Below, piece after piece: positions 600 through 50,554 of a DNA stretch of 64,000 nt. The position numbers and the translations under genes were made by a program. The DNA lies in the sequence record OL631482.1, one strand, 5' to 3'. The notes under the pieces are model-generated. The model made no database searches. It saw only the letters and a list, made by a program, of their open reading frames with translations, and was not told the origin of the DNA. This stretch comes from Escherichia phage ECML-359. Position 1 is the stretch's first letter. Each line of letters starts with the position of its first letter.

Positions 600-945
600 T
601 ACGAACCTCCTTAATAAATTCTTCGGCACATTTAATTTTGTGCTCTTCTTGTAGGGAAACACATTTTTGTTCCCACTCTTTAACTCGTCCACGATATCCT
701 TTATTCATATGATTTTGATGCCACACATTTATCAAAATCATACTCAGGACTGTAATAAAAGGAGCTGCAATTATTAGTGCCCAGGCGACTCCAACACTAA
801 TGATACCCATATCTCCACAAACAACCATCATTATAACCCCAACGATGCACATGGACAGCGCCCCAAATGGAGGCATAAGGTCTTTATCAATCTTGTCTGC
901 ATATACAAATTTTTCTGGTTTACTTGGCAGATATAGCGTTCGCAT
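586..945 (-). CDS. small membrane protein, unknown function (paralog-like of 246..599)
   Basis: ORF track 586..981 trimmed to ATG (MRTLYLPSK...) with AAGGGG RBS; two hydrophobic helices; C-terminal ...EEFIKEVRNGTA resembles neighbour. Confidence 0.5.
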   Translation of the reverse strand: MRTLYLPSKPEKFVYADKIDKDLMPPFGALSMCIVGVIMMVVCGDMGIISVGVAWALIIAAPFITVLSMILINVWHQNHMNKGYRGRVKEWEQKCVSLQEEHKIKCAEEFIKEVRNGTA

Positions 946-1474
946 TTTGAACCCCTTTAGCATATTCACGACATTCAGCAATAAAACGATTAAGTTTACG
1001 TTTCCGTTTACGACTTTCTAATGTGTACTCAGCCGCCAAATCAAGAAGCTCATCTTTATCATAATTTTTAATATCCGTATAAGCGGGACGACGGTCAACC
1101 ATTCCAAAGTGGTCACCATTTTCTAACATCAAATAACACACCAAATGGTCATCATCGTCCGCATTAGTAAGCTGTTTATAATCACTTGGTTCGTTTAAAG
1201 CATATACTGAATAACGTAGTCCAGCGAATTCCACTCGTTGAATACCCAGATTTACATCAATAATTTCCAAGGCATCTGCGAAAGAAAGGTCTTCAGCTAA
1301 AGCAAAAATAAAAGGCAATTTGGTAGTATCGCCGCGACTTGTTGTTCTTCTTAAGAAATCATTGGAATAGCCCAAGTCGCGGCGGATTCTATAAAGAACT
1401 GTGTTAGTTTCAGTGGCAAGACCACTACCGCCAAACCATTCCACATTTGATAAAAGATTATCATATAAAGTCAT
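920..1474 (-). CDS. hypothetical protein
   Basis: ORF track 920..1492 trimmed to ATG (MTLYDNLLSN...) preceded by GGAGAGGAG; acidic patch DDDDH; basic RKRKRK segment. Confidence 0.6.
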   Translation of the reverse strand: MTLYDNLLSNVEWFGGSGLATETNTVLYRIRRDLGYSNDFLRRTTSRGDTTKLPFIFALAEDLSFADALEIIDVNLGIQRVEFAGLRYSVYALNEPSDYKQLTNADDDDHLVCYLMLENGDHFGMVDRRPAYTDIKNYDKDELLDLAAEYTLESRKRKRKLNRFIAECREYAKGVQNANAISAK

Positions 1475-1494
1475 AATTTTCTCCTCTCCCAATT

Positions 1495-1514
1495 AAGGGG
1501 GCTTTGCCCCCTTT
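1495..1514 (-). terminator. hairpin terminator
   Basis: aagggggctttgccccc followed by ttt. Confidence 0.45.
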
Positions 1515-1517
1515 ATC

Positions 1518-2111
1518 TTACTTAAGTGAATTGATGTATTCTTCAATGTCAGCGGACGTGGTATCCACACCAACCTGTGGACCTTTGAAGGTTTCAACAC
1601 GCATCAAGGTGTCTTCAATATCAATCTTAGTCAATGCAGCGATTTCAACAACATCATCTGCAGTCGCAATACCCAGGGCAGATACCTTACGGGTTTCGCG
1701 GATGTATTCCAGTTTAACAGCTAGTTCCTGACGAGAATCATCCAGCTCTTTAACTTTCAATTTAATTTCATTACGCATTTCAACATAATCGTCTGCCTTC
1801 TTACGAAGTTGTTTAGCAGTGCGACGATACAGGAGACCCAGTTTAGCATGGACCTGGACATCCGCGCCATCAGCAATCAGTTTGCGGATTTCACGCTCTT
1901 TTGAAGCGGCGAGTTGGTCTTTTTCATTCGCTAACTCGCGGATGCGTTTTTCTTCATTAACAGACTTAACGTGGGCGGTCTGGAGCTCAGTAATCTTGTC
2001 AATCAGGGTAGACGCCGCTTGAGTATATTGGTCTTCAATAGACAGGTTTTTTGCCATTGCAGTACCCAGTTTGGAGCGGATGAATTCAACAAGTTTCTTT
2101 AAAGTATTCAT
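1518..2111 (-). CDS. coiled-coil protein, unknown function (weak PspA/IM30-like heptad pattern)
   Basis: 197-aa ORF, strongly heptad-patterned charged sequence; hairpin terminator downstream at about 1495-1514. Confidence 0.6.
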
Positions 2112-2183
2112 GGTATTTCCTTCAGTTGGTTAATGTTTTATTATCCAGGGAACATACTATCATGTTCCCATTAAAGCACTAAT

Positions 2184-2489
2184 TTAGATTTTGTTTTCCT
2201 GCACACCATAGTAAAGTTCATCAGACACAATATCCAGGATGCGGCGAACATATTCATCATGGTATTGGCAGTCAAAATCAAATGCAACAGTAGTTTCCGC
2301 TTCACGAGTGAATTTAACTTGCACATTCAGGTGATTAACAACGTTAGTTAATTTATCAGTAAAGAACTCTTTTGCTACCGCCTGTTGGACTTGCACTTTA
2401 AACTTGGTGTTACGAATCATATTTTCAGCAGATGCGAAATTACCAGTTTTATCAAAGTCAACAAGCGCCAGGTTGATGATGAATTTCAT
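2184..2489 (-). CDS. hypothetical early protein
   Basis: 101-aa ORF; GGAG RBS; preceded by early-promoter stem-loop cassette 2490-2572. Confidence 0.6.
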   Translation of the reverse strand: MKFIINLALVDFDKTGNFASAENMIRNTKFKVQVQQAVAKEFFTDKLTNVVNHLNVQVKFTREAETTVAFDFDCQYHDEYVRRILDIVSDELYYGVQENKI

Positions 2490-2572
2490 TTTATTCTCCA
2501 GTGTTTTATTTGGTAACTCAGTATGGAATCATTATGCCTTAAAGCAGGGGGCTTGTATACCCCCTTTTTGAA
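2490..2572 (-). promoter_or_regulatory. early promoter with stem-loop and conserved leader
   Basis: hairpin agggggcttgtataccccct; -10 CATAAT; leader shared with copies at 3005-3086, 3513-3600, 41022-41100. Confidence 0.55.
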
Positions 2573-3004
2573 TTAAATTTCAAATTCTTTGCGGAAGTTG
2601 GAAGCATAAGACTGAACTGATGCTTTGTTGAATCCAAACTCACGCACAATCATATCAATAACAGCTCTGCGAGCAGCACCATTAGACATATTAACAGTTT
2701 TGAACATATCATAGCATAAATCTTTGTTGCTCATACCGGAGCGTTTAGGTGCCTTACGTTCAGCTTTAGGAGTAGGTTTAACTTCTGGTTTAACCTGTCC
2801 ATCATTCAGACCTTTAAAAATTTTACCTGCCAGAGTTGCCAGTTTAGCAGCTTCGCCACGAGTGATACCAAATACTGCCGGGTTAAATGAAATACCTTCA
2901 GCTGCCAGACGTTTGAAGAACATACGTGCTGCGGATTGTGCTTCAGCTTCAGAAGAGTTGTTTAATGCCAGCTTAACGTACTTAACCAGTTTTGAAGTTT
3001 TCAT
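2573..3004 (-). CDS. hypothetical early protein with shared C-terminal module
   Basis: 143-aa ORF; C-terminal NGAARRAVIDMIVREFGFNKASVQSYASNFRKEF shared with 3087..3512; own early promoter 3005-3086. Confidence 0.65.
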   Translation of the reverse strand: MKTSKLVKYVKLALNNSSEAEAQSAARMFFKRLAAEGISFNPAVFGITRGEAAKLATLAGKIFKGLNDGQVKPEVKPTPKAERKAPKRSGMSNKDLCYDMFKTVNMSNGAARRAVIDMIVREFGFNKASVQSYASNFRKEFEI

Positions 3005-3086
3005 TTTATTCTCCAGTGTTTTATTTGGTAACTCAGTATGGGATAATTATACACTATCCCACTTGGAAGTAAAACACTTTTCTCAA
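3005..3086 (-). promoter_or_regulatory. early promoter (-35 GTTTTAC, 17-nt spacer, -10 TATAAT) with -10 in the loop of a gggata/tatccc stem-loop
   Basis: minus-strand reading GTTTTACttccaagtgggatagtgTATAATtatccca...GGAG. Confidence 0.6.
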
Positions 3087-3512
3087 TTATTTTTGAGCTT
3101 TGCGGAAGTTGGAAGCATATGACTGAACAACAGTCTTTTTGATATCATGGGTGTTAACCAGAACATCAATCAGGGCGCGGCGAGCTGCACCATCTGCCAT
3201 ATCAATTTCTGCAAATGCCTGGAAGCAAATGTCACGAGCATTACCAGATTTGGACTGGATTTTTTCTTCTTTAACTTCTTCAATTGGGAATTCAATCATT
3301 TCAGCTTGGATTAATTCAATGATAGATTCTTTTGACTGTTTGGTGTTTACCTTCAGTTCAGAATTAAGGGACTTAGCGATGGCAACAATCTGGGTTGAAG
3401 TCAGATGAATAAGTGCATCTTCACGAATGCAGATTTCACATACTTCGTCGGCAACCATTTTGTTAGTGATGCGGGTAACAGAGAATGCAGAAGTCAGGGT
3501 CAGGAAGTTCAT
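3087..3512 (-). CDS. hypothetical early protein with shared C-terminal module
   Basis: ORF track 3087..3593 trimmed to ATG (MNFLTLTS...) with GGAGA RBS; C-terminal DGAARRALIDVLV...VVQSYASNFRKAQK. Confidence 0.6.
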   Translation of the reverse strand: MNFLTLTSAFSVTRITNKMVADEVCEICIREDALIHLTSTQIVAIAKSLNSELKVNTKQSKESIIELIQAEMIEFPIEEVKEEKIQSKSGNARDICFQAFAEIDMADGAARRALIDVLVNTHDIKKTVVQSYASNFRKAQK

Positions 3513-3600
3513 TTTATTTCTCCAAAGTTTTGTTTGATTCAGTGTGTAACTCAGTATGGAATCATTATGCATCCAGTCAATTCGGATGTACACTACTTTT
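3513..3600 (-). promoter_or_regulatory. early promoter (-35 GTGTAC, 17-nt spacer, -10 CATAAT) with conserved leader
   Basis: same leader ccatactgagtta... as neighbouring cassettes. Confidence 0.55.
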
Positions 3601-3617
3601 TGAAGAAATATTAAAAA

Positions 3618-3637
3618 TAAACCCGCCGAAGCGGGTT
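3618..3637 (-). terminator. hairpin terminator
   Basis: aaacccgccgaagcgggttt. Confidence 0.5.
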
Positions 3638-3640
3638 TGA

Positions 3641-4195
3641 TTAGTTCTTATAAAAGCGGAACGGATTTATATGAAAGGCGAGCATAGCCTTAGGGATTGG
3701 TCGGGACAGAAGACTCTTGAGCTTCCAGCCACAATAAACGCGCAGATAAAAGGTGATTCCACCGACCTTGAGATAAGGAACAGAAGCAAAAACACCCCAG
3801 GCATTATCCGTCCACATCCAGAGCCATCCGTGATGAGCTTTATCCGGGGAGCCGGATTCAACATCAGGATTACCTTTATAATGGAATTCTGAATTGCAAT
3901 CACGACCGAGCTTGTGGTAAGCAAAATTGTATGCTTTGTTTCGCCAGAGCCAGGCTACTCGTTGGAAGTAAACACCTAATGGCCATTTTCGGATTTTTGA
4001 CCAACGCTCGACATGACCCCGGTCACCATCAATCGGATTATCATAAGTCATCATCCAATCAAACCCGAACGGAAGTTTACCAGTCTTTTTATTATGGAAT
4101 GGAACTACAAATGGAGCCAGGATAACGGCCAGAATCATGGAGATAAAATCCAGTGGAACTAACAGAATCCAACTCAAATATTTTAACAGTTTCAT
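3641..4195 (-). CDS. membrane-anchored Trp-rich protein, unknown function
   Basis: ORF track 3641..4273 trimmed to ATG (MKLLKYLSWILL...); N-terminal TM helix; hairpin terminators on both sides. Confidence 0.6.
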   Translation of the reverse strand: MKLLKYLSWILLVPLDFISMILAVILAPFVVPFHNKKTGKLPFGFDWMMTYDNPIDGDRGHVERWSKIRKWPLGVYFQRVAWLWRNKAYNFAYHKLGRDCNSEFHYKGNPDVESGSPDKAHHGWLWMWTDNAWGVFASVPYLKVGGITFYLRVYCGWKLKSLLSRPIPKAMLAFHINPFRFYKN

Positions 4196-4223
4196 ACGTT
4201 TCTCTTTAGTTGATTTATAAAAA

Positions 4224-4246
4224 AGCCCCAACCTTTCGGAAGGGGC
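4224..4246 (-). terminator. hairpin terminator after 4285..4668
   Basis: agccccaacctttcggaaggggct. Confidence 0.45.
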
Positions 4247-4284
4247 TATACCTTGTCGGGGTTCCACCTGCAAGGCAAGTGTTC

Positions 4285-4668
4285 TTATCCGCGAGCGAAT
4301 GCCATTGCGGCGCGTTCGTTGGCACGGTCGGTGATGTTCAAGAATTTATCACGAGCGATTTCGATTGGAGCGCCAACCCAGTCAGCAGCACCATTACCTG
4401 GAGACTGTTTAGGGCGAACCATATAAGTTGAAACTTTAGAACCGGCCAGTTTGGCACCTGGTGCCGCGGCATTTTTAACGTCTTTAGCTTTGATGCCAAA
4501 CCCAGTTACGATACCCCAAGAAACACCATTAACTGGTTTCTTGAACATAACACGGTCACCAATTGAAACACCGGCTTTTTCTGGAGCCACTAAAGAAAAT
4601 TTACCAGCTTCAGTCAGTACGGATTCGGTGATGGTATTGCGATTTAAAAATTCTGCATATGTAAGCAT
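4285..4668 (-). CDS. internal-protein-like protein with capsid-targeting-like N-terminus
   Basis: N-terminus MLTYAEFLNRN resembles T4 internal-protein leader MKTYQEFIAEA; TATAAATA late promoter on minus strand just upstream (about 4702-4709). Confidence 0.55.
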   Translation of the reverse strand: MLTYAEFLNRNTITESVLTEAGKFSLVAPEKAGVSIGDRVMFKKPVNGVSWGIVTGFGIKAKDVKNAAAPGAKLAGSKVSTYMVRPKQSPGNGAADWVGAPIEIARDKFLNITDRANERAAMAFARG

Positions 4669-4701
4669 TTTGTTTTTCCATTATTAGGGTTGTTGTTAAT
4701 A

Positions 4702-4709
4702 TTTATATT
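4702..4709 (-). promoter_or_regulatory. late promoter TATAAATA
   Basis: reverse complement of tatttata about 40 nt upstream of ATG of 4285..4668. Confidence 0.5.
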
Positions 4710-4715
4710 CCATAG

Positions 4716-4900
4716 TACCGGATGCACCATCCGCTCGGATTTCTCATACTACCGGACGCACCGTCCGCTCTGGAAAAACTCCGTTAAAAGGGTGCGCCGT
4801 TTCAGCTGTGGTAGTAAAGAACCAGAACACAGTAAAACTGTGGGAGGAACTATACTTCAGGGAACGTCAGTCCGACGACTTACCGGTAGCGACCCGGTTT
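4716..4900 (-). ncRNA. candidate small structured RNA downstream of the tRNA genes (position analogous to T4 stable RNAs C/D)
   Basis: two near-identical short hairpins (ccggatgcaccatccg / ccggacgcaccgtccg) as a direct repeat; no convincing ORF; same strand and just downstream of tRNAs. Confidence 0.25.
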
Positions 4901-5156
4901 CTCATTCAATTGTAATAGCTAATTTGACTTTAACAACCTTATAATTGGAATCAAGGTCATTGAATTCCATAAAATTTGTTGCTAATCTGCGAGTCGGGAA
5001 ACTTAGATATTTATTATGCTCAGGTGGAGCAGTTAATGCAAACCATGGGACTTGTTTATCATTTTCATCAAACTCATCAAAGCTATAAACCAGCTCGTTG
5101 TTGGTTATATCCATAACTGCATATGATTCACTAATAACCATAATATCCTCGGTAAT

Positions 5157-5233
5157 TGGTCGGGGTGGTGGGATTCTAACCCACAACCTACGGTTTAGAA
5201 GACCGTTGCTCTATACAATTGAGCTACACCCCG
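5157..5233 (-). tRNA. tRNA-Arg (anticodon TCT)
   Basis: Hand-folded cloverleaf: acceptor CGGGGTG/CACCCCG, anticodon loop CTTCTAA, T-arm GTGGG-TTAGAAT-CCCAC, encoded CCA. Confidence 0.85.
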
Positions 5234-5309
5234 GGTGGCCCCATCCGGACTTGAACCGGAAACCTGCCAGTTATGAGCCGGATGCTCTAACCAATTGAGC
5301 TACAGGGCC
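5234..5309 (-). tRNA. tRNA with CAT anticodon (Met by anticodon; the T4 counterpart with CAU is tRNA-Ile)
   Basis: acceptor GGCCCTG/TGGGGCC, D-arm GCTCAATTGGTTAGAGC, anticodon loop CTCATAA, T-arm CCGG-TTCAAGT-CCGG; directly abuts tRNA-Arg. Confidence 0.8.
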
Positions 5310-6751: not shown

Positions 6752-6808
6752 TTTATTCTCCTCAGTAGTTGATGGGATAATTATACGCTATCCCATTCAA
6801 AAGTACAC
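6752..6808 (-). promoter_or_regulatory. early promoter in stem-loop (tgggata/tatccca) upstream of 6566..6751
   Basis: -10 TATAAT in loop; -35-like GTGTAC 17 nt upstream. Confidence 0.5.
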
Positions 6809-7063
6809 TTATTTTTTAGGGATACGATAGTAACGCATCTCAACATCTTTCTGCTTGTGCCACTTTTTGATAAGGTCTTCAGAACCTTTAATGGTAACGA
6901 TGTCATAGCGACCATCATGCGATACTTCAGCACTTAACTGCATGAAGTTGTCTAGTGAACGGCGCAATTCCTCATTAGAAAAACTACCACGCGGGGAACC
7001 AACATAAGCAAACTCAACTTTTGCATCTGCGGCTTCGTTAATAAATTCTTGATAAGTTTTCAT
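6809..7063 (-). CDS. internal protein (capsid-targeting leader MKTYQEFINEA)
   Basis: N-terminus matches T4 IP capsid-targeting sequence; 84 aa; own promoter cassette. Confidence 0.75.
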   Translation of the reverse strand: MKTYQEFINEAADAKVEFAYVGSPRGSFSNEELRRSLDNFMQLSAEVSHDGRYDIVTIKGSEDLIKKWHKQKDVEMRYYRIPKK

Positions 7064-7119
7064 GTTGTCTCCAGTAGTTGATGAGATAATTATACTGCAG
7101 TTATCCCATCGCGTATACT
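7064..7119 (-). promoter_or_regulatory. early promoter in stem-loop (internal-protein cassette)
   Basis: gatgagataattatactgcagttatcccatc; -10 TATAAT. Confidence 0.5.
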
Positions 7120-7362
7120 TTATTTTAAGTCTTCCAGACGTTTTTTCATCTTGGTGCCGTTCTTAGCAATCTCGCCTGCATCAGAACAAAGAGCAAGGAG
7201 AGCTTTAACTTTACCCTGGTCGCCTTTAAAAGATGATGCATCTACTGAATCAGCAAGTTCTTTGATACGTGCAAACAGGCGCTCTGCTTCAGCAAGGGCT
7301 TGACCAAGTTTAACTTCCATACCATGGGAAGATTCTGTTATAAATGTTTGATAAGTTTTCAT
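7120..7362 (-). CDS. internal protein (leader MKTYQTFITES)
   Basis: capsid-targeting-like N-terminus; 80 aa; own promoter cassette 7363-7407. Confidence 0.7.
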   Translation of the reverse strand: MKTYQTFITESSHGMEVKLGQALAEAERLFARIKELADSVDASSFKGDQGKVKALLALCSDAGEIAKNGTKMKKRLEDLK

Positions 7363-7407
7363 GTTGTCTCCAAGCCATAAAAAGGGGATAATTATCCCCT
7401 TTTGTTA
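7363..7407 (-). promoter_or_regulatory. perfect 24-nt palindrome aaaaggggataattatcccctttt (terminator/promoter cassette)
   Basis: perfect inverted repeat between two internal-protein genes. Confidence 0.5.
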
Positions 7408-8329: not shown

Positions 8330-8393
8330 ATTAACTCCGTTTGTTCATTCGTTGGTGTAGGAACATAATACTGCACCTACACTTATTTGTACA
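8330..8393 (-). promoter_or_regulatory. early promoter (-35 TGTACA, 17-nt spacer, -10 TATTAT) in stem-loop gtgtagg/cctacac
   Basis: upstream of first internal-protein gene. Confidence 0.5.
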
Positions 8394-9084
<691 letters not shown>

Positions 9085-34636: not shown

Positions 34637-34688
34637 TCAGTTAGAAACCGTAGAACCATTATACAGTGGTATAAATAAAAGCATAATC
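34637..34688 (-). promoter_or_regulatory. middle-promoter-like element inside a stem-loop, antisense to gene 18
   Basis: minus-strand reading: TGCTTTTA-N12-TATAAT-GGTTCTACGG; inverted repeat accgtagaacc / ggttctacgg. Confidence 0.45.
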
Positions 34689-34756
34689 GGTTCTACGGGC
34701 TCCTGTGGTTGATTCTGGGAAGCCATTATCTTGAGATGATGAATCATATTACCTAG

Positions 34757-39129: not shown

Positions 39130-40689
39130 ATGAAAAAGAATGCATTAGTTCAAAAATGGTCCGCTCTGCTGGAAAACGAAGCTCTTCCGGAAATCGTTGG
39201 TGCTTCTAAACAAGCTATCATCGCTAAAATCTTTGAAAACCAGGAACAAGATATTCTGACCGCTCCTGAATACCGTGACGAAAAAATCTCCGAAGCATTT
39301 GGTTCTTTCCTGACCGAAGCTGAAATCGGTGGTGACCATGGTTATGATGCTACCAATATCGCTGCTGGCCAGACCTCTGGTGCAGTAACTCAGATTGGGC
39401 CGGCAGTTATGGGTATGGTTCGTCGTGCTATCCCGCATCTGATTGCGTTTGATATTTGTGGCGTACAGCCTCTGAACAACCCGACTGGCCAGGTATTTGC
39501 CCTGCGTGCAGTTTACGGTAAAGACCCTGTAGCTGCTGGTGCTAAAGAAGCTTTCCACCCGATGTATGCTCCAAATGCTATGTTCTCTGGTCAGGGCGCT
39601 GCTGAAGCTTTCGAAGCTCTGGCTGCAAGCAAAGTTCTTACCGTTGGTAAAATTTATTCTCACTTCTTCGAAGCAACCGGTGCCGCGCACTTCCAGGCTG
39701 TTGAAGCTGTAACCGTTGATGCTGCTGCTACTGATGCCGCTAAACTTGACGCCGAAGTTACCAAACTGCTCGAAGCTGGTAAGCTGGCCGAAATCGCTGA
39801 AGGTATGGCTACCTCTATCGCCGAATTGCAGGAAGGCTTCAACGGTTCTACTGATAACCCGTGGAACGAAATGGGCTTCCGTATCGATAAACAAGTTATC
39901 GAAGCTAAATCTCGTCAGCTGAAAGCAAGTTACTCCATCGAACTGGCACAGGACCTGCGCGCTGTTCACGGTATGGATGCTGATGCCGAATTGAGTGGTA
40001 TTCTGGCTACCGAAATTATGTTGGAAATCAACCGCGAAGTTATCGATTGGATTAACTACTCCGCACAGGTTGGTAAATCTGGTATGACCAACACCGTTGG
40101 CGCTAAAGCTGGTGTGTTTGACTTCCAGGACCCGATTGATATCCGTGGCGCTCGTTGGGCTGGTGAAAGCTTCAAAGCTTTACTGTTCCAGATTGATAAA
40201 GAAGCCGCTGAAATCGCTCGTCAGACTGGCCGTGGTGCAGGTAACTTCATCATCGCTTCCCGTAACGTAGTTAACGTACTGGCTGCAGTTGATACCTCCG
40301 TATCTTATGCTGCTCAGGGTCTGGGTAAAGGTTTCAACGTTGACACCACTAAAGCTGTGTTCGCTGGTGTTCTGGGTGGCAAATACCGTGTATACATCGA
40401 CCAGTATGCTCGTGCAGACTATTTCACCATCGGTTACAAAGGCGCTAACGAAATGGATGCTGGTATCTACTACGCACCATATGTTGCACTGACCCCGCTG
40501 CGTGGCTCTGACCCGAAAAACTTCCAGCCGGTTATGGGCTTCAAAACCCGTTACGGTATCGGTATTAACCCGTTCGCTGACCCGGTAGCTCAGGCTCCGA
40601 CTAAGCGCATTCAGAACGGCATGCCAGACATCGTTAACAGCCTCGGCTTGAACGGTTACTTCCGCCGCGTATATGTTAAAGGAATTTAA
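39130..40689 (+). CDS. 23: major capsid protein gp23
   Basis: 519 aa; protease-site-containing N-terminal region ...LTEAEIGG; strong codon bias. Confidence 0.95.
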   Translation: MKKNALVQKWSALLENEALPEIVGASKQAIIAKIFENQEQDILTAPEYRDEKISEAFGSFLTEAEIGGDHGYDATNIAAGQTSGAVTQIGPAVMGMVRRAIPHLIAFDICGVQPLNNPTGQVFALRAVYGKDPVAAGAKEAFHPMYAPNAMFSGQGAAEAFEALAASKVLTVGKIYSHFFEATGAAHFQAVEAVTVDAAATDAAKLDAEVTKLLEAGKLAEIAEGMATSIAELQEGFNGSTDNPWNEMGFRIDKQVIEAKSRQLKASYSIELAQDLRAVHGMDADAELSGILATEIMLEINREVIDWINYSAQVGKSGMTNTVGAKAGVFDFQDPIDIRGARWAGESFKALLFQIDKEAAEIARQTGRGAGNFIIASRNVVNVLAAVDTSVSYAAQGLGKGFNVDTTKAVFAGVLGGKYRVYIDQYARADYFTIGYKGANEMDAGIYYAPYVALTPLRGSDPKNFQPVMGFKTRYGIGINPFADPVAQAPTKRIQNGMPDIVNSLGLNGYFRRVYVKGI

Positions 40690-40707: not shown

Positions 40708-40740
40708 AAAAAGGGACCCTTGAGGTCCCTTTCTTGTTTT
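40708..40740. terminator. bidirectional hairpin terminator between gene 23 and the minus-strand 93-aa ORF
   Basis: aaaagggacccttgaggtccctttc flanked by A-run and T-run. Confidence 0.6.
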
Positions 40741-41021
40741 CATACCATACCATTTAAATGAACTTCTACCCGGCGCTTGATGAGGTCTCTGAAGTTAACA
40801 TTGTTTTCTTGAAGTTTCAACCAGTTACCATTTTTATCTTTAGTGTGAGTAGAATAATTACCATTCCACCAGAAATCAGTGTCATATGCTAAGTTTTCAT
40901 ATTTTTTAACTAGTTTGTTCAGAGCATTACCATTAACACCATTTGGGTATTTGTTGACCAATGCAATAACTTCAATTTCCAATTTTTTAAAGGTGTTCAG
41001 AAGGAAAGTTGCTTTGTTCAT
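40740..41021 (-). CDS. hypothetical early protein (93 aa) in the gene 23-24 intergenic slot
   Basis: clean ORF; GGAG RBS; strong early promoter cassette 41022-41100 upstream. Confidence 0.6.
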   Translation of the reverse strand: MNKATFLLNTFKKLEIEVIALVNKYPNGVNGNALNKLVKKYENLAYDTDFWWNGNYSTHTKDKNGNWLKLQENNVNFRDLIKRRVEVHLNGMV

Positions 41022-41100
41022 TTTTAAACTCCAGGTTTTGTTTGTTAACTCAGTATGGAATCATTATGTCTTATCTTAATCTGGTTGTAAACAACTTTTA
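41022..41100 (-). promoter_or_regulatory. early promoter cassette (-35 GTTTAC, 18-nt spacer, -10 CATAAT, conserved leader)
   Basis: leader matches copies at about 2521, 3021 and 3541. Confidence 0.6.
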
Positions 41101-41132: not shown

Positions 41133-42413
41133 ATGGCAAAGATTAACAAATTACTGCGCGAGTCAACTATTACTACCAGCAACTCCTTGGGCCGCCCGAA
41201 TCTTGTTGCTTTGACCCGCGCTACGACTAAATTGATTTACCGCGATATCATCGCTGAACAACGTACTAACCAACCTGTTGCTGCACTGTATGGTGTTAAA
41301 TATCTTACTCCTGATAACGAATTCAGTTTCCAGACGGGCGCTACTTATGGAGGTGAAGTCGGTTCTAAAGACCGTACAACTATTCCAGAATTAGCTACAG
41401 CCACTCAGCCTGTTGCTAAAGGCGAATATGTAAAATACCAAAATATCGTTTACAAAGCTCTGGTTGATAATCCATTTGCATCGACCACAGAAACAGTGTT
41501 ATCTGATGTTCTGCAAGAAGGTCTTATTGCATCGACTATTCGTTTAGTTCCTGATGCTGCACACACCGAAAAATTCGAAGCTGGTGATGTTGAAATTAGC
41601 AATGCTGTATTCCAGGTTAATAAATGGAATGCTCCGGTTAAAACACGTAAATTGAAAACTGCATTAACTGTTGAACTTGCTCAGGATATGGAAGCAAATG
41701 GTTTTAACGCTCCTGCATTCTTGGAAGACCTGCTTGCCACTATTATGGCAGATGAAATTAACAAAGATGTTCTTCAGTCTCTTATTACCGTTTCCAAGCG
41801 TTATAAAGTAACTGGTGTTTCTGACAATGGCACCATCGATTTAACATACGATGCAGCCCCAGAAGGTGCACGTAAACTGTACGAACTGGTTTGCGAAATG
41901 AACTCCGAAATTCAGAAAACTACATCTTATTCCGGTACCTTTGTTGTTGCCTCTAGCCGTGTTGCTGCTATGTTGGCCGGTTCTGGTTGGTTGAAACACA
42001 GGCCAGAAGACGAACAGTGGCTCCCCGAAACAGCGTACGGTTATTTGATTAATGGCCTCCCTGTATTCTGTGATGTTAACAGTCCATTGGATTATGTAAC
42101 TGTTGGTGTTAAAGAAAATTACGGCGGAAACGAAGTCGTAGGCTCAATTTTCTATGCTCCTTATACCGAAGGCCTGGACTTGGATGATGAAGAGCACGTT
42201 GGTGCGTTTAAGGTCATTGTGGACCCAGACAGCTTGCAGCCATCTATCTCTCTGATGGTTCGTTACGCACTTTCAGCTAACCCGTACACCGTTGCTAAAG
42301 ACGATAAAGAAGCTCGTATTATCGATGCAACCAATATGGATTTAATGGCCGGTCAGAGCAATATGTCTTATCTGCTCGGTGTTAAACTTCCGCCAATCAT
42401 TTATGAGGCGTAA
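41133..42413 (+). CDS. 24: capsid vertex protein gp24
   Basis: MAKINKLLRESTITTSNSLGRPNLVALTRATTKLIY...; 426 aa; gp23-fold vertex protein. Confidence 0.9.
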   Translation: MAKINKLLRESTITTSNSLGRPNLVALTRATTKLIYRDIIAEQRTNQPVAALYGVKYLTPDNEFSFQTGATYGGEVGSKDRTTIPELATATQPVAKGEYVKYQNIVYKALVDNPFASTTETVLSDVLQEGLIASTIRLVPDAAHTEKFEAGDVEISNAVFQVNKWNAPVKTRKLKTALTVELAQDMEANGFNAPAFLEDLLATIMADEINKDVLQSLITVSKRYKVTGVSDNGTIDLTYDAAPEGARKLYELVCEMNSEIQKTTSYSGTFVVASSRVAAMLAGSGWLKHRPEDEQWLPETAYGYLINGLPVFCDVNSPLDYVTVGVKENYGGNEVVGSIFYAPYTEGLDLDDEEHVGAFKVIVDPDSLQPSISLMVRYALSANPYTVAKDDKEARIIDATNMDLMAGQSNMSYLLGVKLPPIIYEA

Positions 42414-44808: not shown

Positions 44809-44847
44809 GGGTCTAGAACCATTATACCGCATTTTTATTTGAAGCAA
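44809..44847 (-). promoter_or_regulatory. MotA-box middle promoter (TTGCTTCA-N13-TATAAT-GGTTCTAGACCC) for rnlB
   Basis: motif upstream of rnlB in sense orientation. Confidence 0.55.
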
Positions 44848-44853
44848 AAAGGG

Positions 44854-45117
44854 TCAGAATTTTACATACAGCATTGGCTTGGATTCTTGCCAATCATAAT
44901 TCCAGGTAAAAGATGTAAATTTTTCTGCTCGCAGAAATTCAGATATCTTTGCGCGGTTTCCTTCTTCATACTCTTTTTCAGAAACTGCCATATTAACAGC
45001 ATCTTTGCCGTTCTCGGCGGCGGCAATAGCCACTTTGCGAAATATAGAAATAAAGTCATTTGCAACTTTATCTTGTGACTCTTTGGCTATTTGGCGTAGT
45101 TCTTCTGCGAATGTCAT
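44854..45117 (-). CDS. gp24.2-like hypothetical protein
   Basis: 87-aa ORF; position matches T4 24.2. Confidence 0.6.
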   Translation of the reverse strand: MTFAEELRQIAKESQDKVANDFISIFRKVAIAAAENGKDAVNMAVSEKEYEEGNRAKISEFLRAEKFTSFTWNYDWQESKPMLYVKF

Positions 45118-50127: not shown

Positions 50128-50166
50128 GGGTCTAGAACCATTATACAGCCATAAAATTAAAGCATT
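50128..50166 (-). promoter_or_regulatory. MotA-box middle promoter upstream of uvsY (oriF-like position)
   Basis: minus-strand reading AATGCTTTTA-N12-TATAAT-GGTTCTAGACCC. Confidence 0.55.
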
Positions 50167-50554
50167 AACCGTTTTGACTTAACTGAATCCTAATTTGTTC
50201 GAGGGTATCAGGGTCATCAACAATGCTGAACTGAACCGTTACGATAATGGAGTTATCATCATACATAGGGACAACTGCAACCTGTAGATTACTTATTCTT
50301 GGTTCGAAGTTCCGCACCGCGGAGACGATGTTGCGTTTAATGGTATCTGTAATTAACGGTGTGATATTCTCAAAAAGCTGATTACTTATATCACATCCAA
50401 ATTCGGGCATAAAAGGCCGTGACCCTTTTCTTGTGGTGATTATTCCCAGAAGACTGTTCTTAACAGACCTTGCACCAGTTACTTTAGCAACGTCTTTATC
50501 CCAACTTGTAGATAAGTTGGGAGATACATCGCTATACATTTTGTTTATATTCAT
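50165..50554 (-). CDS. 25: baseplate wedge protein gp25
   Basis: MNINKMYSD...LLGIITTRKGSRPFMPEFGCD...; 129 aa. Confidence 0.93.
   Translation of the reverse strand: MNINKMYSDVSPNLSTSWDKDVAKVTGARSVKNSLLGIITTRKGSRPFMPEFGCDISNQLFENITPLITDTIKRNIVSAVRNFEPRISNLQVAVVPMYDDNSIIVTVQFSIVDDPDTLEQIRIQLSQNG

Follow-up and report, generated by a model that had tools for sequence, protein, structure and literature searches.

Cassettes of about 80 nt that precede several small early genes of this phage are, in our judgment, quite probably elements of the PeSL (promoter early stem-loop) type: in each, a strong early promoter for host sigma70 would be joined to a standard 5′ leader with its ribosome-binding site, and the cassette would double as a patch of homology for recombination. 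Their sequences support the PeSL reading, which extends the idea that a regulatory cassette can be a recombination joint to another T4-like genus. The evidence from sequence is unusually clean, with chimeric cassettes at junctions and two independent types of junction for one gene. The current understanding of T4-type genome evolution is unchanged; gene gain and loss at PeSLs has already been described in other T4-type phages.

Four copies of one cassette

The source phage belongs to Gaprivervirus (the SP18/VR7 group of T4-like phages). In the 64,000-nt stretch of DNA that was analysed (the window), the cassette is present in four copies (repeat families D2/D3), c1 to c4. The first three sit within the e.6-tRNA variable region. 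The fourth lies in the structural module, antisense between gp23 (39130-40689, plus strand) and gp24 (41133-42413, plus strand), and this locus is itself variable (in TH15, see below). The cassettes and their genes are:

2490-2572, minus strand: c1, between the ORF143 stop and the ORF101 start; −35 GTATAC 2560-2555, −10 CATAAT 2536-2531, CATACTGAGTTA 2525-2514, GGAG 2499-2496; hairpin GGGGGTA..TGCCCCC (about 2565-2546) enclosing the −35
2184-2489, minus strand: ORF101 (F16; phrog_7474), downstream of c1
3005-3086, minus strand: c2, between the ORF141 stop and the ORF143 start; −35 TTTTAC/TTTACT 3074-3068, −10 TATAAT 3051-3046, 12-mer 3040-3029, GGAG 3014-3011; 10-bp hairpin (3062-3038) enclosing the −10
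2573-3004, minus strand: ORF143 (F15; phrog_18416), between c2 and c1
3513-3600 (to 3640 with the terminator), minus strand: c3, upstream of ORF141; A-tract, −35 GTGTAC 3593-3588, −10 CATAAT 3569-3564, 12-mer 3558-3547, GGAG 3523-3520; bidirectional terminator 3638-3619 and 6-bp spacer hairpin 3588-3570
3087-3512, minus strand: ORF141 (F14; phrog_9997), between c3 and c2
2587-2617, minus strand: 3′-terminal patch of ORF143, 31 nt, with 97% identity to its counterpart in ORF141 (3098-3128, also 3′-terminal; D17)
41022-41099, minus strand: c4, upstream of the 93-aa ORF; −35 GTTTAC 41092-41087, −10 CATAAT 41068-41063, 12-mer 41057-41046, GGAG 41032-41029
40740-41021, minus strand: 93-aa ORF (phrog_6003), between gp23 and gp24
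40708-40734, no strand assigned: bidirectional terminator hairpin that closes the 93-aa ORF module

The 23-mer CATAATGATTCCATACTGAGTTA has four matches at up to 3 mismatches, versus 0.00 expected, and these are upstream of ORF101, ORF143, ORF141, and the 93-aa ORF. The 13-mer CCATACTGAGTTA has four exact matches, every one within a cassette. From 5′ to 3′, the cassette consists of an A-tract, a −35 of the form GT(G/T/A)TAC, a spacer of 17-18 nt, a −10 of the form (C/T)ATAAT, the invariant 12-mer CATACTGAGTTA at the predicted transcription start, an A-rich leader, GGAG, and the ATG; in 4/4 copies the GGAG lies 7 nt 5′ of the ATG. All four copies scored 9-10 out of 12 in a consensus scan for promoters or matched GT(G/T/A)TAC-N17/18-(C/T)ATAAT, and the sigma70-type −35 and −10 proposed in an earlier note on this DNA are present in each copy as a T4-early-type pair. 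We detected no extended −10 (TGn) in the four copies. When we aligned 13 cassettes from upstream of 13 different genes (alignment A1), the invariant parts were T-TAC of the −35, ATAAT of the −10, and CATACTGAGTTA (13/13), while the spacer was variable; the A-tract (consensus AAAAAGTAG) lies directly 5′ of the −35. In an Rfam scan of the whole window, only two tRNAs reached the gathering score, and the leaders belong to no known RNA family.

The earlier note placed such a cassette before each small early gene. This is correct for ORF101, ORF143, ORF141, and the 93-aa ORF but not for e.6 (start at 2111), which has a different element. Similarly, the near-identical leader ending in GGAG is common to the four copies, which share CCATACTGAGTTA, but the internal-protein genes at 6.7-8.4 kb carry a related leader of another sequence, CCCATCAACTACTG(A)GGAG.

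As PeSL-type elements, the cassettes would make each small early gene a self-contained expression unit. The predicted start of transcription by host RNA polymerase is the A of CCATACTG, some 7 nt past the −10. The leader is rich in A and unstructured, and with its GGAG 7 nt from the ATG it should allow efficient early translation. By analogy to T4, these mRNAs would be shut off by the RegB endoribonuclease, for which the GGAG is a candidate site. Directly oriented stretches of 22-49 identical nucleotides are common to the copies, and the genome comparisons below indicate that they act as portable patches of homology, where the phage recombination system deletes, inserts, or swaps a gene between or next to them and leaves chimeric cassettes at the junctions. 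Annotators can take the true starts of several small early genes from the cassettes. (Longer GTG/ATG extensions of the ORF141 frame are not credible and would run into the promoter.)

Hairpins and terminators

Hairpins are present in three of the four copies and in three positions: around the −35 in c1 (7-bp stem, z = −2.3), around the −10 in c2 (10-bp stem, z = −3.5), and in the spacer in c3 (6-bp stem). c4 has no significant hairpin (z = +0.3). Across 15 genomes, 94% of the cells of the c3 stem are paired, with one compensatory pair, and covariation is no better than in shuffles (134/500). In a terminator pattern scan, the gene strand gave no intrinsic terminator within any cassette: the c1 hairpin scores as one on the opposite strand only, and the only true terminator at c1-c3 is the separate hairpin at 3619-3638. 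So the idea that each cassette contains a terminator-like hairpin, often with the promoter in its loop, survives in part (there are hairpins in 3/4 copies, around the −35 of c1 or the −10 of c2), but c4 lacks one and none is a canonical gene-strand terminator. Hairpins in or beside the promoter may reduce the transcription that continues into a cassette from the unit upstream. We dropped a role for RNA structure in the leader itself, as the leader folds gave no consistent structure.

Comparison with known PeSLs and early promoters

PeSLs have been described by Arbiol et al. (2010, PMC2839356) and Comeau et al. (2014, PMC4122927). A published PeSL combines an AT-rich tract and a sigma70-like early promoter with a stem-loop whose position varies, and it has a 3′ Shine-Dalgarno sequence with a start codon; the anatomy of the window cassettes fits this description, as the earlier note had suggested. 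In the RB49 and phi1 PeSLs (Arbiol et al.), as in c1 to c3 here, the stem-loop is variably around the −35, around the −10, or in the spacer. There are also several differences. The −35 is TTGACA in RB49/phi1 and GT(G/T)TAC here; the best-conserved part here runs from the −10 through the transcribed leader (12 nt of it invariant) and is not a polyG/polyC stem; and one window copy (c4) has no stem-loop, unlike the RB49/phi1 elements. Also, promoter activity, terminator activity, and mini-circles are experimental results in RB49/phi1, whereas promoter activity, termination, and recombination are predicted from sequence for the window cassettes. In Comeau et al., the T4/PST consensus TTTACW-N17-TAYWAT fits the window copies, and 'half' or degraded elements are described near indels, like the one at 7363-7407 in the window. 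The KVP40/nt-1 PmSL (MotA box, −10, and stem-loop) in the same paper resembles the e.6 element at 2112-2183. As far as we read them, these papers contain no description of the amplified leader family CCATACTGAGTTAC, which here is in a different genus. We found no description of PeSLs in Gaprivervirus, VR7, or SP18 in the literature that we searched, which did not include the VR7 and SP18 genome papers, so an earlier mention is possible.

The 'uber' early promoters of T4, with UP, −35, TGn, and −10 elements, likewise have very good sigma70 elements, an A-rich upstream tract, and extra conserved positions (Hinton, 2010, PMC2988021). In contrast to these, no TGn was detected in the window copies, and conserved sequence continues across their entire 5′ untranslated region, as far as the ATG.

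Gene gain and loss at the cassettes

We compared the window to 14 relatives (15 genomes in all) with no outgroup, so each indel can be read as an insertion or a deletion. As the earlier note had anticipated, the cassettes are conserved in the 14 relatives, the genes between them vary, and junctions lie inside cassettes. For c3, the mean column identity is about 98% across the 15 genomes; the A-tract is invariant, and the variation is confined to the spacer hairpin and two columns of the leader. Besides the four cassettes, five other elements of the window are relevant:

2112-2183, minus strand: element upstream of e.6, not of the first family; MotA-box-like TGCTTTA, 12 nt, TAGTAT
6753-6816, minus strand: cassette of a second family, upstream of the trna.4-like ORF61; GTGTAC, leader CATCAACTACTGAGGAGAATAAAATG
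7065-7121, minus strand: cassette of the second family, upstream of an internal-protein-like ORF (MKTYQEFINEA); GTATAC, hairpin around TATAAT, leader CATCAACTACTGGAGACAACATG
7363-7407, minus strand: degenerate cassette upstream of the internal-protein-like ORF80; palindrome GGGGATAATTATCCCC and T-run (terminator-like), then GGAGACAACATG
8330-8394, minus strand: early-type promoter upstream of ORF110; GTGTAC-18-TATTAT, hairpin GTGTAGG..CCTACAC around the −10

The 98-aa gene F44, which is flanked by cassettes that we term A and B, is present in 10/15 genomes and absent from 5/15. In SP18, P479, and RZ, which lack it, there is a single cassette made of the 5′ half of A and the 3′ half of B, with the switch inside the shared CCATACTGAGTTACCAAATAAA. 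In the window and in EAWsc9, which also lack it, the junction retains the entire A up to AATAAAATG. The two junction types are on two different ORF141 haplotypes, which points to at least two events.

ORF101 is absent from three genomes (RZ, DK-13, and VR7). In RZ and DK-13, c1 is joined to the e.6 leader at TGGA(G/T)AATAAAA, and the leader of the e.6 element (TGGATAATAAAA) is the right-hand crossover point. The e.6 element, which has a 9-bp hairpin around its −10, is also the insertion point of the 132-aa gene F49 (present in 3 genomes). In the same two genomes, the second-family cassette at 6753-6816 is the site of the F46 indel, with a chimeric junction and a 47-nt overlap; BLAST alignments to the left and right of an insertion have 47-49 nt in common, as duplicated homology. 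Loss of the DUF7338 gene involved a crossover in GGGCTTTTTTATA, which is common to two terminators. At the gp23/gp24 locus, the sequences of the window, TH15, and JS10 agree exactly up to and including the −35 (GTTTACA), beyond which they diverge. TH15 has a gene for a SegE-like GIY-YIG endonuclease instead of the 93-aa ORF, and the terminator at 40708-40734 lies at the gp23-side end of the stretch that holds it (the exact junction is unaligned). JS10 retains the 93-aa ORF (62% amino-acid identity) with another −10 and leader.

Thus, the junctions of the F44, ORF101, F49, F46, and gp23/gp24 events lie within cassettes, and three of these events leave chimeric cassettes. Not all events do so. 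In VR7, one of about 13 distinct events is a deletion (window 913 to 2815) with both ends in coding sequence, away from cassettes, and several other events (ORF127, tRNAs, ORF160) end in intergenic sequence that is not cassette. Breakpoints at gene boundaries are also expected from selection alone, by any mechanism. The earlier note had described the cassettes as likely recombination-active boundaries of novel cargo: the junctions agree with this, but nearly all relatives have ORF141, ORF143, and the 93-aa ORF in synteny, which means that a gene next to a cassette need not be a recent acquisition. We saw no genome without ORF143 among the window and the 14 relatives, despite the 46-nt identity between c1 and c2, the longest one.

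The accessory genes of the genus include F44, ORF101, F49, the DUF7338 gene, and the internal-protein genes, and for phage engineering the cassettes mark places that apparently tolerate the addition or removal of genes. Searches of the cargo proteins against Pfam and PHROGs gave no function, and the sole Pfam match was DUF7338 (in a 184-aa gene). The product names 'rho-N', 'H15', 'amidase-6', and 'holin' in the EAWsc9 record were not supported by these searches. The other homologs of ORF101 are found only in Krischvirus (RB49 ORF198, 46% identity), and ORF198 is preceded by a typical RB49 PeSL (TTGACA-17-CATAAT, with GGGGATAT..ATATCCCC around the −10) whose architecture is nearly the same as that of c2. 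ORF143 contains a PKAE repeat that differs in length between relatives.

Spread of the leader

Gaprivervirus genomes have 9-13 cassette places each. In SP18, the leader is at 12 loci in the sequenced parts (counted without the gp23/gp24 region), and the significant copies are all on the early-gene strand, in early regions, and mostly before small hypothetical ORFs. The same core also precedes syntenic conserved genes such as srd, nrdC.8, 30.8, and frd.1. In Dhakavirus, the leader is at a single orthologous locus, frd.1. A Morganella phage record has three matches, and the one copy that we examined is at frd.1. The frd.1 protein of Morganella phage MP1 has only 50% identity to that of SP18 or IME341, but the promoter-leader of the gene has about 85%. 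Apparently, frd.1 is the ancestral site of the leader, and amplification took it to at least 12 loci in Gaprivervirus; as judged from these comparisons, the leader is under selection and has spread to new loci.

A stronger version would be that CATACTGAGTTA, which contains the −10-like hexamer CATACT, is a signal in its own right and that a promoter-leader module moved from frd.1 to at least 12 Gaprivervirus loci. We regard this as unlikely. If CATACTGAGTTA were such a signal, it could for example be a sigma70-dependent promoter-proximal pause, a promoter-escape element, or a binding site for a phage factor. If the module did move, then the resident −10 and leader were replaced at gp23/gp24 with the gene kept, and this would be transposition of a regulatory module by gene conversion, distinct from the shuffling of cargo.

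Alternative explanations

The most serious alternative to PeSL-type elements that also recombine is that the cassettes are only highly constrained early promoters and leaders: one optimal sequence is selected, indels end there for viability, and recombination is not promoted. T4 early promoters do carry a consensus well past the −35 and −10 (PMC2988021), the core precedes syntenic genes such as srd and frd.1, the 93-aa ORF is syntenic in two genera (Gaprivervirus and Dhakavirus), the conservation of the frd.1 leader across genera indicates selection, and some indels end outside cassettes. Points against it are the chimeric junction cassettes that switch within 9-22 nt common to both parental cassettes, the duplicated homology across insertions, the two independent junction types at F44, and the replacement of the −10 and leader at gp23/gp24 with the ORF kept. 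Furthermore, c1 and c2 share 43-46 nt of identical leader ahead of unrelated genes, which exceeds any known promoter requirement. We consider a promoter-only account quite unlikely.

A second possibility is that a dedicated recombinase or homing-type nuclease acts site-specifically, with CATACTGAGTTA as its core site, and that the cassettes are strictly mobile elements. Its invariance in 13/13 cassettes with variable flanks would fit, as would the GIY-YIG endonuclease gene at one cassette locus in TH15, and Arbiol et al. did not decide between homologous and site-specific recombination. But the crossovers are scattered (the 22-nt leader block, AATAAAATG, TGGA.AATAAAA, terminator T-runs, and the 5′ ends of internal-protein genes at the MKTYQ-type signal), there are no inverted termini or target duplications, and no recombinase is linked to the cassettes. 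As CATACTGAGTTA is at the predicted start, a role in transcription is simpler, and a site-specific system seems very improbable.

Third, the three copies at 2.5-3.6 kb could be remnants of a local tandem duplication of a gene and its flank, with no dispersed family. The C-terminal domains of ORF143 and ORF141 are indeed paralogous (48% identity over 58 aa), and the 31-nt patch of 97% identity is just upstream of c2 and c1, but the fourth copy is 38 kb away before an unrelated ORF, there are 12 copies in the sequenced parts of the SP18 early regions, and the most similar pair (c1/c2) precedes unrelated genes. As the sole origin, tandem duplication is contradicted by the dispersed copies and has hardly any chance of being right; it could be only a partial account of ORF141 and ORF143. 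Because the domain around the 31-nt patch is only about 55% identical, we read the patch as one further patch of homology, probably a conversion tract.

Finally, a transposon or MITE was rejected, as the four copies and their flanks have no terminal inverted repeats, target-site duplication, or linked transposase. All copies also have the same orientation relative to early transcription.

Other cassettes and the internal-protein region

On its sequence, c2 is a mosaic of a second-family promoter and a first-family leader: its promoter half resembles the cassette at 6753-6816 (D15), which has the hairpin GGGATAGCG..TTATCCC around TATAAT, and its leader half is identical to that of c1 (D2). The degenerate cassette at 7363-7407 has no −35, and the element at 8330-8394 looks PeSL-like with a different leader.

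The internal-protein region shows the same gene turnover at cassettes with the second leader family. The internal-protein-like genes at 6.7-8.4 kb share an N-terminal MKT(Y/F)QEF targeting sequence, and they are exchanged between the conserved 5′ coding stretch and the next cassette. The internal-protein locus of T4 shows similar shuffling (Repoila et al., 1994, cited in PMC4122927), a parallel that concerns the second cassette family only and not the copies at 2.5-3.6 kb. The second-family cassette is conserved at the internal-protein locus in T6/T4-type phages.

Repeated cassettes with a probable early promoter

The window carries four copies (c1 to c4; repeat families D2 and D3) of a cassette with a predicted early promoter and a leader:

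2490-2572, minus strand: c1, precedes ORF101 (2184-2489)
3005-3086, minus strand: c2, precedes ORF143 (2573-3004)
3513-3640, minus strand: c3, precedes ORF141 (3087-3512)
41022-41099, minus strand: c4, precedes a 93-aa ORF (40740-41021)

In each copy the order of parts is an A-tract, a -35 of GT(G/T/A)TAC, a spacer of 17-18 nt, a -10 of (C/T)ATAAT, GATTCCATACTGAGTTAC, an A-rich leader, GGAG, 7 nt, and ATG. Thus, the sigma70-type -35/-10 and the near-identical leader with GGAG that the earlier note described were found in all four. The 23-mer CATAATGATTCCATACTGAGTTA has 4 matches (0.00 expected), and the 13-mer CCATACTGAGTTA has 4 exact matches, every one inside a cassette. When c1 to c4 were aligned with nine copies from phage SP18 (13 cassettes, preceding 13 different genes), T-TAC, ATAAT, and the 12-mer CATACTGAGTTA were invariant and the spacer was variable. 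Across 15 genomes, c3 has a mean column identity of 98%, and its variation is confined to the spacer hairpin and two leader columns. The cassette is a conserved repeat, always in the orientation of early transcription.

Window positions 1500-4300 have matches in Gaprivervirus genomes (T4-like Straboviridae, including SP18, VR7, VR20, and EAWsc9), at 93-98% identity. Judging from annotated relatives, c1 to c3 lie between e.6 and the tRNA genes, where every gene is on the minus strand; this interval is a classical variable region in T4-type genomes. ARAGORN and Rfam identified tRNA-Arg and tRNA-Met at 5157-5309 and nothing more. The 93-aa ORF is antisense, with gp23 and gp24 on either side.

A cassette had been claimed for each small early gene and for the internal-protein genes. 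This is true of ORF101, ORF143, ORF141, and the 93-aa ORF, but e.6 (start 2111) has a different element (2112-2183, minus strand; TGCTTTA, 12 nt, TAGTAT), whose -10 is enclosed by a 9-bp hairpin. This element fits the MotA-box middle-promoter consensus (PMC2988021) and resembles the middle-promoter stem-loop (PmSL) elements that have been described for phage nt-1. (Relatives have variants with a GTGTAC or GTTTAC -35 at this position.) The internal-protein genes (6.7-8.4 kb) do have cassettes, but with a second family of leader, CCCATCAACTACTG(A)GGAG. This family 2 is conserved at the corresponding locus of T6/T4-type phages, and its leader half is found throughout T4-like phages. c2 is mosaic, with a promoter and hairpin like those of the family-2 cassette at 6753-6816 (85% identity, repeat family D15) and the leader of c1, identical across 46 nt.

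The hairpins are genuine in three of the four copies, at differing positions. The supposed placing of the -35/-10 within the hairpin applies to c1 (7-bp stem around the -35) and c2 (10-bp stem around the -10), but the 6-bp stem of c3 is in the spacer and folding found no hairpin in c4 (z = +0.3). The c3 stem is paired in 94% of cells across 15 genomes, with one compensatory pair, no better than shuffled controls. Nor did the hairpins score as terminators, although they had been described as terminator-like: in a scan of the gene strand for intrinsic terminators, no cassette hairpin qualified, and the sole true terminator at the cassettes is a separate hairpin at 3619-3638.

We propose a transcription start near the A of CCATACTG, and the GGAG ribosome-binding site as a candidate target of RegB, which cuts GGAG; SP18 encodes regB. 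The hairpins may attenuate read-through. Given their sequence and established T4 biology, the cassettes are probably strong early promoters (PMC2988021).

Cassettes at the junctions of gained and lost genes

We compared the region of c1 to c3 with its counterparts in 14 Gaprivervirus genomes, sorted the ORFs by family, and inspected all intergenic sequences. As the earlier note predicted, the cassettes are conserved and the cargo between them varies. Along transcription, the order is the DUF7338 gene, ORF141, [F44], ORF143, [ORF101], [F49], and e.6 (bracketed genes are variable). F44 (a 98-aa gene with homologues only in Gaprivervirus) occurs in 10 of the 15 genomes, with cassette A before it and cassette B after it. 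In SP18, P479, and RZ, one cassette remains between ORF141 and ORF143, made up of the 5' half of A and the 3' half of B, which switch over within the common CCATACTGAGTTACCAAATAAA. In the window and EAWsc9, the F44-less junction is the whole of A as far as AATAAAATG. As these junction types occur on different ORF141 haplotypes, at least two events are needed.

Other genes vary similarly. ORF101 is absent from RZ and DK-13, where c1 is joined to the e.6 leader at TGGA(G/T)AATAAAA. F49 (132 aa; TH54, VR20, and P479 only) sits within the e.6 promoter and carries its own GTTTAC -35. The DUF7338 gene is missing in TH54, with the crossover in GGGCTTTTTTATA, which is common to two terminators, and in SP18, TH57, and VR25, within larger replacements that also take out ORF127. 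In the internal-protein region, an indel of family F46 left a chimeric family-2 cassette, and other swaps terminate at the 5' end of the internal-protein genes, in conserved coding sequence. At the gp23/gp24 locus, the window, TH15, and Dhakavirus JS10 are identical as far as the -35 GTTTACA and divergent beyond. JS10 retains the 93-aa ORF (62% amino-acid identity) with a different -10 and leader. In its place, TH15 has a 219-aa SegE-like GIY-YIG endonuclease with a C-terminal helix-turn-helix (L015 829-1488), which is predicted to be driven from the same -35 element.

Overall, the cassettes are placed at the junctions of gene-sized indels, and chimeric cassettes are left behind. A clear exception is a deletion of ~1.9 kb in VR7 (window 913 to 2815; L009 3974-4190), which involves no cassette: it extends from within the ORF143 homologue as far as e.4, takes out ORF101, e.6, and the next gene, and has a junction overlap of ~10 nt.

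A single site-specific cut could be invoked for these exchanges, but the crossover points are scattered, contrary to that model. Recurrent breakpoints in the window, from BLAST, are at 3002/3050, 2147/2488, 2170/2182, 3616/4216, 6730/6776, 6822/7017, and 7362/7694, and the flanking alignments at insertions share 47-49 nt of duplicated homology. Exchange would proceed by phage homologous recombination on 9-49 nt of identity.

Some relatives differ in other ways. Among them, the central part of the ORF143 protein has a variable count of PKAE-type repeat units (143, 147, or 155 aa). In Yersinia phage P8 (L003 4677-4949), the ORF141 homologue is in two ORFs (60 + 70 aa), which would be due to a frameshift (pseudogene) or to an error in sequencing. 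The EAWsc9 record (L001) gives names such as 'malate synthase', 'VirB3', 'holin', 'amidase-6', and 'rho-N' to ORFs of 60-180 aa; many of these look like over-assigned automatic annotation, and the ORFs tested had no support from Pfam or PHROGs.

Distribution and possible origin of the leader

The earlier note correctly recognised a promoter-early stem-loop (PeSL). The sequence-level features of PeSLs in two reports (PMC2839356, PMC4122927) are all present here, apart from the stem-loop, which is missing in one copy. The literature that we searched had no description of PeSL-type elements in Gaprivervirus, so the element is of a known kind, in a genus for which we found no earlier description. 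With it come clean junction evidence and the possible amplification of a regulatory module.

The cassette occurs at 9-13 places per Gaprivervirus genome, versus a single place in Dhakavirus records. In SP18, the core of the family-1 leader (that of c1 to c4) precedes srd, nrdC.8, 30.8, frd.1, and several hypothetical ORFs, on the early strand in every case. The sole Dhakavirus copy (IME341) is at frd.1, as is the one examined of three matches in Morganella phage MP1. The frd.1 promoter-leader of MP1 (L022) is ~85% identical in nucleotides to those of IME341 (L023) and SP18 (L020), but the MP1 protein is just 50% identical; this better conservation shows selection on the leader itself. The distribution suggests that the module was ancestral at frd.1 and may then have been amplified in Gaprivervirus. 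Outside Gaprivervirus, ORF101 has homologues only in Krischvirus (RB49 ORF198, 46% identity), and RB49 ORF198 has a textbook RB49 PeSL upstream.

Other motifs in the window

Three matches to MotA-type middle promoters, with an initial transcribed block in common, lie within the structural-gene region:

34651-34692, 44814-44855, and 50133-50174, minus strand: repeat family D5, TGCTT(T/C)(T/A)A, 12 nt, (G)TATAATGGTTCTA

One copy has no obvious downstream ORF; of the other two, one precedes an RNA-ligase-2-like ORF (start 44723) and one a UvsY-like ORF (start 50111). The long intergenic region at 4669-4901 has two tandem copies of GAGCGGA.GGTGC.TCCGGTA.TATG (a hairpin and a -10-like motif) and a late-promoter motif, TATAAATA, ahead of ORF127. 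At the equivalent position, several relatives without ORF127 have a tRNA-like remnant, GGTTCGAATCCCGG, instead.
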